Assembly (NCBI RefSeq): GCF_006345805.1
Contig: NC_043005.1
Location: 79,794,001-79,858,000 of the forward strand
DNA: 64,000 bases
DNA from: Octopus sinensis
Lineage: Eukaryota
Direction: 5' to 3'
In this document: positions 16,997 to 19,963 of the stretch, one piece after another
Numbering within the stretch: position 1 is the stretch's first letter
How the letters are laid out: every line of letters begins with the position of its first letter
The notes under the pieces: model-generated
What the model was told of the DNA's origin: nothing
The model's database searches: none
Seen by the model: only the letters and a program-made list of their open reading frames with translations
Made by a program: the position numbers and the translations under genes

Positions 16997-17246
16997 CACA
17001 CACACACACATACACACACACATATATATATATAAATATATATATATATAAACATTTTGGAAATGGGTGCGTGGCATTCAACTATGTAATATTGTACATA
17101 ATATAATATGATATATCACCGTGATCACCGTGACAGACAAGGCTATCAGATGTTGCTACACATCGCTGGTCACAATGCACTTCGCATTGTTTTAGCCTTC
17201 AAATGACGCCACCACGCTGGCTAAGCGAGCAGGCCAATATGATATT

Positions 17247-17278
<32 letters not shown>

Positions 17279-17345
17279 CACAAACGTTTTGTAAATAGGT
17301 GCGTGGCATTCAGCTATGTAATAATGTACATAATATATAATATAT

Positions 17346-17416
<71 letters not shown>

Positions 17417-18150
17417 AGAGAGTAACCACCATGTGGTCGACTCTAGCACTAAAAATAGATCCGCTAGGTTTCAGCCACAAAGAATTGTTTCCGATGAAAG
17501 TTAGCACGACTACTAGCGCAAACGAACAGGGCAAATAAAAATAACAAAAATGCAGATTAGTTCAGGACAACTGTTTCGCTATTAATAAATTATGTAATTT
17601 TACTCACACAACATATCTGTAGCTCTTCAGCCGAACCCGTCCAAAATACAATTTACTCAACCGCACGCTAGATTTTACCAAACCGATAAACACACGTGCG
17701 GTTCAGTCGATTGCATTCGTTGTTATAATTCAAGTGCCCCTGCCACAGCCCGCCGAAATTCACGGAAACAGATACTACATCCAAAATTAAATGCAGTATA
17801 ATTACAATCAACTAATAAGGGTGAGAAAATTGGATACTAATTTAATAGTACATCCATTTAACACCAACTGGCTTAGTGCGTAAATACTTGGATTACAATA
17901 AATTTTATACATAAATATCAGAGAGTAACCACCATGTGGTCGACTCTAGCACTAAAAATAGATCCGCTAGGTTTCAGCCACAAAGAATTGTTTCCGATGA
18001 AAGTTAGCACGACTACTAGCGCAAACGAACAGGGCAAATAAAAATAACAAAAATGCAGATTAGTTCAGGTTTTTACGCACTAAGCCACTTTGTGTTAAAT
18101 GGATGTACTATTAAATTAGTATCCAATTTTCTCACCCTTATTAGTAGATT
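17417..18150 (-). mobile_element. Retrozyme/Penelope-like non-coding element (family D): 503-bp unit with 150-bp direct repeat and 82-bp 5' inverted segment
   Basis: 17417-17566 = 17920-18069; 18069-18150 is the near-exact reverse complement of 17806-17887; (TA)n on both flanks; hammerhead inside. Confidence 0.8.
17559..17637 (-). ncRNA. Type I hammerhead ribozyme (canonical core)
   Basis: GGUUCGG-CUGAAGA-GCUA(38 nt)UAGC-GAAA-C(AGUU)G-UC|CUGAACU; 7-bp stem I (two G-U), G-C closed stem II, 2-bp stem III, GUC cleavage triplet (cut between 17566 and 17565). Confidence 0.85.
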
Positions 18151-18159
18151 ATATATATA

Positions 18160-18216
<57 letters not shown>

Positions 18217-18753: not shown

Positions 18754-18787
<34 letters not shown>

Positions 18788-18923
18788 GAGGGCATTATAC
18801 ATACATGCCAGAGAGCATTATACATACATGCCACACGCTAAGAGGGACAATTAGTCCTTTCTACCGAAAATATTACTAATCCCACCGAATGCAATTTTTC
18901 AAAATAAGACATTTAAAAAATAT

Positions 18924-18971
18924 AGACCTGTATCACAGTGATTTCATACTTACGTATTCATCAGCAGGCCT
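18924..18971 (-). ncRNA. Type I hammerhead ribozyme, copy 1 of family E
   Basis: AGGCCUG-CUGAUGA-AUAC(GUAA)GUAU-GAAA-UCAC-U-GUGA-UA|CAGGUCU: 7-bp stem I, 4-bp stem II with GNRA loop, palindromic stem III, AUA triplet. Confidence 0.85.
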
Positions 18972-19399
18972 GAATGTATCATAAATAAACGACCCTGTCC
19001 CGCTTAAGCCGATCAGCTAACTGATCAACATCAACGAAGCACATGGGTGAGTTTACATATATTACATCCTGTAAATGGCATATTTTTACGAATTGCATTT
19101 CGGGAGAGGAAAAGTTTTTTCGGAATAAAAATTTAGCAATTAAGGACAACTACTTAATAAGGAAAACTTAACAAGAAATTGTCAGGTAGATAGCGTGAAA
19201 ACCTCATAAGAGAATAAATTTCGAAAATAATTATTTCTTATTGAACATATTAATTTATATATAGAGGGCATTATACATACATGCCAGAGAGCATTATACA
19301 TACATGCCACACGCTAAGAGGGACAATTAGTCATTTCTACCAAAAATATTACTAATCCCACCGAATGCAATTTTTCAAAATAAGACTTTTAAAAAATAT

Positions 19400-19447
19400 A
19401 GACCTGTATCACAGTGATTTCATACTTACGTATTCATCAGCAGGCCT
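19400..19447 (-). ncRNA. Type I hammerhead ribozyme, copy 2 of family E
   Basis: Identical to 18924-18971. Confidence 0.85.
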
Positions 19448-19963
19448 GAATGTATCATAATAAACGACCCTGTCCCGCTTAAGCCGATCAGCTAACTGAT
19501 CAACATCAACGAAGCACATGGGTGAGTTTTTACATATATTACATCCTGTAAATGGCATATTTTTACGAATTGCATTTCGGGAGAGAAAAGTTTTTTCGGA
19601 ATAAAAATTTAGCAATTAAGGACAACTACTTAATAAGGAAAACTTAACAGAATTGTCAGGTAGATAGCGTGAAAACCTCATAAGAGAATAAATTTCGAAA
19701 ATAATTATTTCTTATTGAACATATTAATTTATATATAGAGGGCATTATACATACATGCCAGAGAGCATTATACATACATGCCACACGCTAAGAGGGACAA
19801 TTAGTCATTTCTACCAAAAATATTACTAATCCCACCGAATGCAATTTTTCAAAATAAGACATTTAAAATATAATATATATAATATATATATATATAATAT
19901 ATATATATATAAACATAGATACATTCATATACATACATAATACATATATTATATATATATATA

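Follow-up and report, generated by a model that had tools for sequence, protein, structure and literature searches.

The stretch of Octopus sinensis DNA analysed here (the window, 64,000 nt) carries, at positions 17417 to 18150, a repeat whose 5′ end seems to fall at the cleavage site of its own hammerhead ribozyme motif, which raises the question of whether this junction is a genomic footprint of ribozyme self-cleavage in vivo. A true footprint of this kind would matter, as the in vivo role of the hammerheads of Penelope-like elements (PLEs) and retrozymes is described as open in the relevant sections of PMC8557442 and PMC11167929. The idea has a counterpart in the HDV-like ribozyme of R2, for which portions of PMC3774820 report that self-cleavage sets the 5′ end of the RNA and that the cut position correlates with genomic 5′ junctions. 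Literature titles and abstracts yielded no study of 5′ junctions at retrozyme cut sites, and supplements may bear on this question.

Layout of the window element

The features of the locus are as follows.

18150..18216, no strand: (TA)n target run, upstream flank
18066..18150, plus strand: inverted second arm, spanning unit positions 179-263 as far as the fixed family 3′ end B (~263) in a TA run
18066..18069, no strand: 4-nt microhomology, CCTG on the minus strand, at the arm junction, covering the cut-site equivalent (−1 to +3)
17566..18068, minus strand: non-coding 503-nt unit, cut site to cut site
17560..17636, minus strand: type I hammerhead, predicted cut between 17566 and 17565
17412..17565, minus strand: tail, unit positions 1 to ~151, ending at the fixed family 3′ end A
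17346..17416, no strand: (TA)n and then (TG)n run, downstream flank

Read on the minus strand, the order is thus TA run, inverted arm, 503-nt unit, ~150-nt tail and TA/TG run, and comparison of the window sequence with itself bears out the layout described in an earlier note on this DNA, i.e., an inverted segment, a 503-nt unit and a repeat of about 150 nt. The segment 18150 to 18069 is an inverted copy of 17806-17887 with mismatches at 18091, 18088 and 18071 (minus strand), and the tail, from 17565 to about 17416, is identical to the unit start at 148 of 148 positions, with tail and unit unlike at unit position 150. The final tail bases blend into the TA run, placing the tail end at 17412-17417, and no target duplication is readable inside the flanking repeat 17346..17416. 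The arm that ends at site 263 is 85 nt long in this copy, and the arm that ends at site 151 (unit plus tail) about 655 nt.

The 2-kb bin containing most of the element has a GC content of 0.336. A dimer of the unit holds no stop-free frame longer than 67 codons, an ORF for RT plus GIY-YIG is absent from the unit, and tblastn found no remnant of a PLE protein in the window. Since the unit lacks an ORF and the window lacks a PLE protein match, the element is not an autonomous PLE and is not filed as one.

Two further repeats lie nearby. An unrelated hammerhead repeat, 600 bp away at window positions 18777-19872, comprises 2.3 copies of a 476-bp unit at 98% identity; its type I motif (minus strand, ~19440 and ~18964) has CUGAUGA, GAAA and a palindromic stem III with a predicted cut after UA, and it is likewise flanked by TA runs. 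Directly downstream of the element, at 17022-17337, an 84-nt direct repeat (89%, spacing 232) lies amid microsatellites.

Family sample

A DNA search of the 2.72-Gb assembly gave 1487 first-look candidates, 40 of which were scored, so that the sample is partial; a second query contributed a few more long arms. As a control for length bias, sites matching short patterns just after the cut were collected (62, 34 and 23 places), and 4 further exact pattern matches were added, sites with one mismatch being mostly left out. Extension against seven natural units gave 180 arms, from which non-canonical ends, duplicates and one internal-deletion piece were removed to leave 148 arms with a canonical 3′ end. 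Extension of one of them, L015, stopped short at a deletion far past the second cut site, which leaves the tests unaffected. The copies are mostly dispersed 5′-truncated arms rather than long arrays. As a separate observation, a complete two-arm insertion occurs twice in tandem, near-identically, at L010/L014 (G000:C9:97124800-97126700), a doubling at the DNA level or in the assembly.

The unit-plus-tail and two-arm layout recurs at dozens of independent loci, and because it is common to the entire family, the unit-plus-tail arrangement is not a local assembly error. That the 150-bp repeat or the junction of the window copy arose in assembly or polishing would fit the lack of any difference between tail and unit start (0/148, against a family mean of 2.4%) and the absence from unit positions 1-149 of all 11 rare variants of the window unit; these two counts hint at local homogenisation. 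The recurrence of the layout and the difference at unit position 150 both speak against an artefact, which we regard as extremely improbable. Contigs from three putative RNA runs and one DNA run cover the family, and none spans the window junction.

Hammerhead motif

The motif at the unit end consists of stem I (GUUCGG/CUGAAC), CUGAAGA, stem II (GCUA/UAGC) with a long extension, GAAA and GUC|CUGAAC. Stem III has two pairs and a short palindrome, ACAGUUGU in the window copy and ACAAUUGU in most copies, with the perfect palindrome ACAATTGT found there in the majority of family copies; the palindromic form of stem III is described in parts of PMC4209133 as working as a double hammerhead. Across 8 copies that represent several subfamilies, standard pairs fill 97.9% of pair cells, compared with at most 44% in slid controls, and three pairs of stem I show changes on both sides, although with 8 copies kinship can inflate the shuffle test. 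This covariation of stem I across subfamilies suggests that the fold is under selection. A search of Rfam gave 0 matches at the gathering score and no hammerhead among 6 weak matches. The hammerhead claimed for the unit end is thus upheld as a motif, with core and stems present and stem I covarying, and its self-cleavage is predicted from sequence. The window copy holds one complete motif, whereas at least 2 complete hammerheads lie in head-to-tail units at the family loci L005, L015, L025 and L076.

Many hammerhead-like repeat families are present in this genome. Those at L186:6764, L187:1453, L189:1000 and L191:7347 belong to other repeat families and lie in TA runs beside PLE copies.

The 5′ junction of the window copy

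The unit start was originally claimed to be the exact equivalent of the cut site. This precision is lost when the inverted arm is compared with the family majority (of ~109 copies, 98 have G and 102 have T at the two variant sites): the arm then reads ...TAAAAACCTG, as in two natural copies, and accounts for 18069-18066. The two arms therefore overlap by 4 nt, CCTG, at −1 to +3, and since both explain these bases, the 5′ end may lie anywhere from −1 to +4. The earlier exact-site reading arose because the inverted arm had been compared with the window's own internal copy, which bears rare variants at unit positions 181 and 184. The 5′ end of the window copy is compatible with the cut site and is not pinned there.

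Such junctions are normal for the family. At 46 head-to-head junctions the arms overlap by 1-5 nt in 25 cases, are blunt in 7, are separated by extra bases in 13 and overlap by 25 nt in one.

5′ ends relative to the cut sites

If self-cleavage set the 5′ ends, arms would be expected to stop at the cut. Yet at the first cut site, which 112 arms approach as far as +4, 110 cross and 2 stop in +4 to −1, against 2.2 expected. At the second cut site 2 of 11 arms stop in this zone, one of them being the window copy, without which the count is 1/10 (P 0.18-0.35). Among the 123 passes, the probability of at least one stop in the 5-nt zone is 0.92-0.995. Related copies thus read straight through, and the match at the cut site in the window copy is likely a coincidence.

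A sister family gives a second view of the same site. Its 534-nt unit is ~75% identical to the 503-nt unit, its copies (L230-L268) are ~99% alike, so that the family is very young, its arrays reach 16 or more units and its stem I is fully compensated. Sampled at 39 loci, less one duplicate and less any arm that lacks a cut site, it yielded 54 arms that cross 154 cut sites with 0 ends in +4 to −1.

These counts speak against the claim that the window junction is a self-cleavage footprint. A plot of 5′ truncation points against the cut site, proposed with that claim as its check, shows ends that are scattered, the outcome that was to refute it, and neither family shows the R2-type pattern, in which full-length 5′ junctions coincide with the self-cleavage site. 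The claim also combined a possibly circular template with a 5′ terminus at the cut, and the two are inconsistent, as a closed circle lacks such a terminus. RT that nearly always reads through the cut site is what would be expected of a ligated circle or of uncut RNA. Two apparent signals were rejected along the way: a pile-up at position 1 in the BLAST table stems from the splitting of matches at the query boundary (the arms extend 5-15 nt past the cut), and arm lengths show no peak at 503, where a stop after exactly one turn of a circle would put it.

A softer signal lies around the second cut site, within 20 nt of which 8 of 13 long arms end (7/12 without the window copy), compared with 1.8-3.6 expected; P is 0.0007-0.04 according to the background hazard used, and this hazard increases with length. 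In the pattern-only sample 6 of 10 end there (P 0.002-0.02, window copy included). Relative to the cut, the eight arms terminate at +15, +11, +3, −1, −5/−6, −5, −11 and −15, with a ninth at −28/−31, and four of the 13 long arms continue beyond the region. These ends are scattered, and five are clearly past the cut and so cannot come directly from a cleaved 5′ end. The sister family lacks this excess: in 102 passes its 43 long arms stop 5 times within 20 nt, where 3.8 stops would be expected (P 0.34), a null result with an uneven background hazard and modest power.

The excess counts towards a repaired form of the earlier model, in which the template is linear, a 1.3-mer or dimer whose 5′ end was cut by the ribozyme while one internal site stayed uncut or was ligated again, RT runs off at +1 and the cDNA end anneals to the other arm through CTG. 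The window junction is compatible with +1, the excess persists without the window copy, one arm (L020) ends at +2 to +7 with a 5′ segment from another subfamily, and linear multimers are described for the axolotl retrozyme in the sections drawn on from PMC7229834. However, a cleaved 5′ end cannot template the five ends past the cut, without the window copy a single arm of 10 stops in +4 to −1 (P 0.18-0.35), and the excess appears neither at the first site nor in the sister family. We consider this linear model improbable.

Two fixed 3′ ends and a shared template

The 148 canonical arms have two 3′ ends, unit ~151 in 78 and unit ~263 in 70, with TA runs after both. They form 62 head-to-head pairs, 16 with a broken or internal end and 46 with two canonical ends, and all 46 of the latter combine one ~151 end with one ~263 end (P 3e-14 against 50:50). 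The sister family follows the same rule by inspection, with one ~151-type and one ~263-type end in 23 of 23 pairs whose ends are both visible; in three of its pairs the A end runs on into AT-rich sequence. Given this one-of-each rule, the segment at the 5′ side of the window copy is a site-263 arm. The PLE-style 5′ inversion first proposed for it holds as to Penelope-style copying, whereas the supposed inversion turns out to be another arm, which was primed independently and has a different fixed 3′ end.

Comparison of tail with unit inside each locus gives 119 differences in 4997 positions (2.4%), and opposite arms diverge by 2.5-2.9%, compared with a median of 7.8% between loci; no recurrent tail-versus-unit differences were found across the family loci. 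The concerted evolution of tail and unit agrees with a template that is monomeric and probably circular. The low divergence within loci implies that a single monomer sequence supplied every part of an insertion, either as a circle or as linear monomers between which the RT jumped. The earlier claim of a 503-nt RNA copied for more than one unit accordingly stands as to length, on a likely monomeric template, and its circularity is putative. We also considered that separate RNA molecules might have supplied the two arms, as the mismatches of the inverted arm could suggest, and rejected this, as opposite arms diverge roughly as little as tandem parts do. Template switches between RNAs do occur, given that L020 (G000:C20:30901612-30902259) is a mosaic with unit positions 3-57 from one subfamily and the remainder from another, with ~9 mismatches to its tail over the first 57 nt and 0 in the next ~60 nt shown.

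The same comparison bears on a model without cleavage or circles, in which read-through transcripts of genomic loci of 1.3 to 3 units are inserted and the hammerhead is carried along as a passenger. The soft pile-up could then stem from source loci whose 5′ ends lie close to the second site, and the portions of PMC11167929 consulted for PAc report that hammerhead mutants had no effect on insertion by the PAc protein in vitro and that none of the RNA reads started or finished at its cut site. Read-through would, however, let the tail and unit drift apart and pass shared differences to daughter copies, contrary to the lack of recurrent differences above, and neither the selected fold of stem I nor sister arrays of 16 or more units suit it; we judge it very unlikely.

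The family is likely a new one among the non-LTR retrozymes, mobilised by a Penelope-like enzyme, and we hold with good confidence that the window element is one of its PLE-mobilised copies with a chance microhomology junction. Multi-unit transcripts would cleave themselves, probably in the form of double hammerheads built on the palindromic stem III, and the cleaved monomers may be ligated into putative 503-nt circles. A borrowed Penelope-like RT-endonuclease would then likely lay two back-to-back arms into a TA microsatellite. The two 3′ ends observed, at unit ~151 and ~263, would reflect priming of cDNA by both target strands; the arms read on through the cut site and terminate at scattered positions, and the two cDNA ends would be joined at a short microhomology, here CCTG, which overlaps the cut by chance. 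Some points weigh against this scheme: a closed circle does not predict the excess of ends at the second site, the PLE 3′ regions compared with the unit share no significant DNA homology with it, and template jumps from one linear monomer to another would produce concerted evolution as well.

In a variant, an asymmetric Penelope RT dimer would make one cDNA per fixed site from ribozyme-processed RNA, with a template pool that is partly linear ribozyme-cut multimer, and at the second cut site the long arm would run off at the nick or clear it by a jump of a few bases. We think this unlikely. If the linear-multimer reading were true, the soft pile-up would be a genomic trace of germ-line hammerhead cleavage, which the in vitro work on PAc did not find.

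Candidate partner enzyme

GIY-YIG sequences are common in the genome (147 matches among 150 scored, from 5029 candidates), and RT plus GIY-YIG frames of ~780 aa occur whose target is TA, as for the retrozyme. Alignment of the window unit with 23 PLE 3′ regions gave nothing clearly above shuffles. In one RT plus GIY-YIG family (L009:830-1200 and L269-L294) the copies are 90-94% alike. This family has 3′ ends at two places, 36 nt from each other and both in TA runs, forms head-to-head pairs from unlike ends at L277 and L293, and carries a hammerhead-like GAAACCGGTT motif ~168 nt from its end. Its end motifs resemble those of the retrozyme in matching order (102 of 5000 shuffles for site A, 3 of 5000 for site B; 25 and 728 of 5000 against the sister unit), a likeness noticed before it was tested and therefore a lead only. 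With this post hoc basis, the family is a candidate partner enzyme and could serve as the partner for in vitro tests.

A second, young RT plus GIY-YIG element (L186-L190) was rejected as the partner, as it has no homology and its end motifs are no better than shuffles. Its copies are 99% alike, with a 781-aa frame that is preceded in L189 and L190 by an overlapping 479-aa frame, and its 3′ region holds a hammerhead-like motif, by eye a U3-A8 core variant. One copy of the sister family lies in a TA run behind two copies of this element.

Comparison with known systems

In L1 twin-priming, the second target strand primes an inverted segment that is joined by microhomology. The second arm described here differs in that it has a fixed starting point and repeats sequence that the other arm already contains.

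For the idea of a junction footprint R2 provides the precedent, and chance microhomologies are described as priming its second strands in portions of PMC3774820. Unlike its 5′ junctions, those described here do not track the cut site.

Metazoan non-LTR retrozymes form circular molecules, and PLEs have been proposed to mobilise them (PMC7229834 and bioRxiv 10.64898/2026.07.22.740005, as far as the sections consulted go); these sections give no analysis of insertion ends. The family described here shares with them a non-coding AT-rich unit, a single type I hammerhead with a short palindromic helix III, a range from monomers to multimers, and coexistence with PLEs. Its unit of 503 nt is above the 170-400 nt given for invertebrates in the relevant part of PMC7229834 and inside the 51-972 bp of the preprint. 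In contrast to the long arrays of metazoan retrozymes in these accounts, the window family consists mostly of dispersed 5′-truncated arms, and a circular RNA is putative here.

With EN+ PLEs (Neptune, Poseidon and Naiad), as far as they are covered by the excerpts used from PMC8557442, PMC11167929 and PMC4209133, the family shares 5′ truncation, partial tandems, an inverted 5′-truncated copy adjoining the 5′ end, TA-microsatellite targets, a hammerhead, and a tail that is delimited by two RT start sites and often found at a single end. Inverted 5′-truncated copies, a tail often at one end only and microsatellite targets are described for PLEs in PMC8557442, circles are proposed as templates for more-than-unit copying in PMC4209133, and the PLE protein of PMC11167929 cuts and extends both strands, with RT starting at two internal sites that define the tail. 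The family differs from EN+ PLEs in that it has no ORF and in that its two starts lie ~112 nt apart rather than 30-40. It also differs from PAc in vitro, for which this part of PMC11167929 gives no strand difference in start site, whereas pairing here is strict (46/46). This rule of one arm of each kind turns the tail found often at one end into a testable claim on an asymmetric RT dimer.
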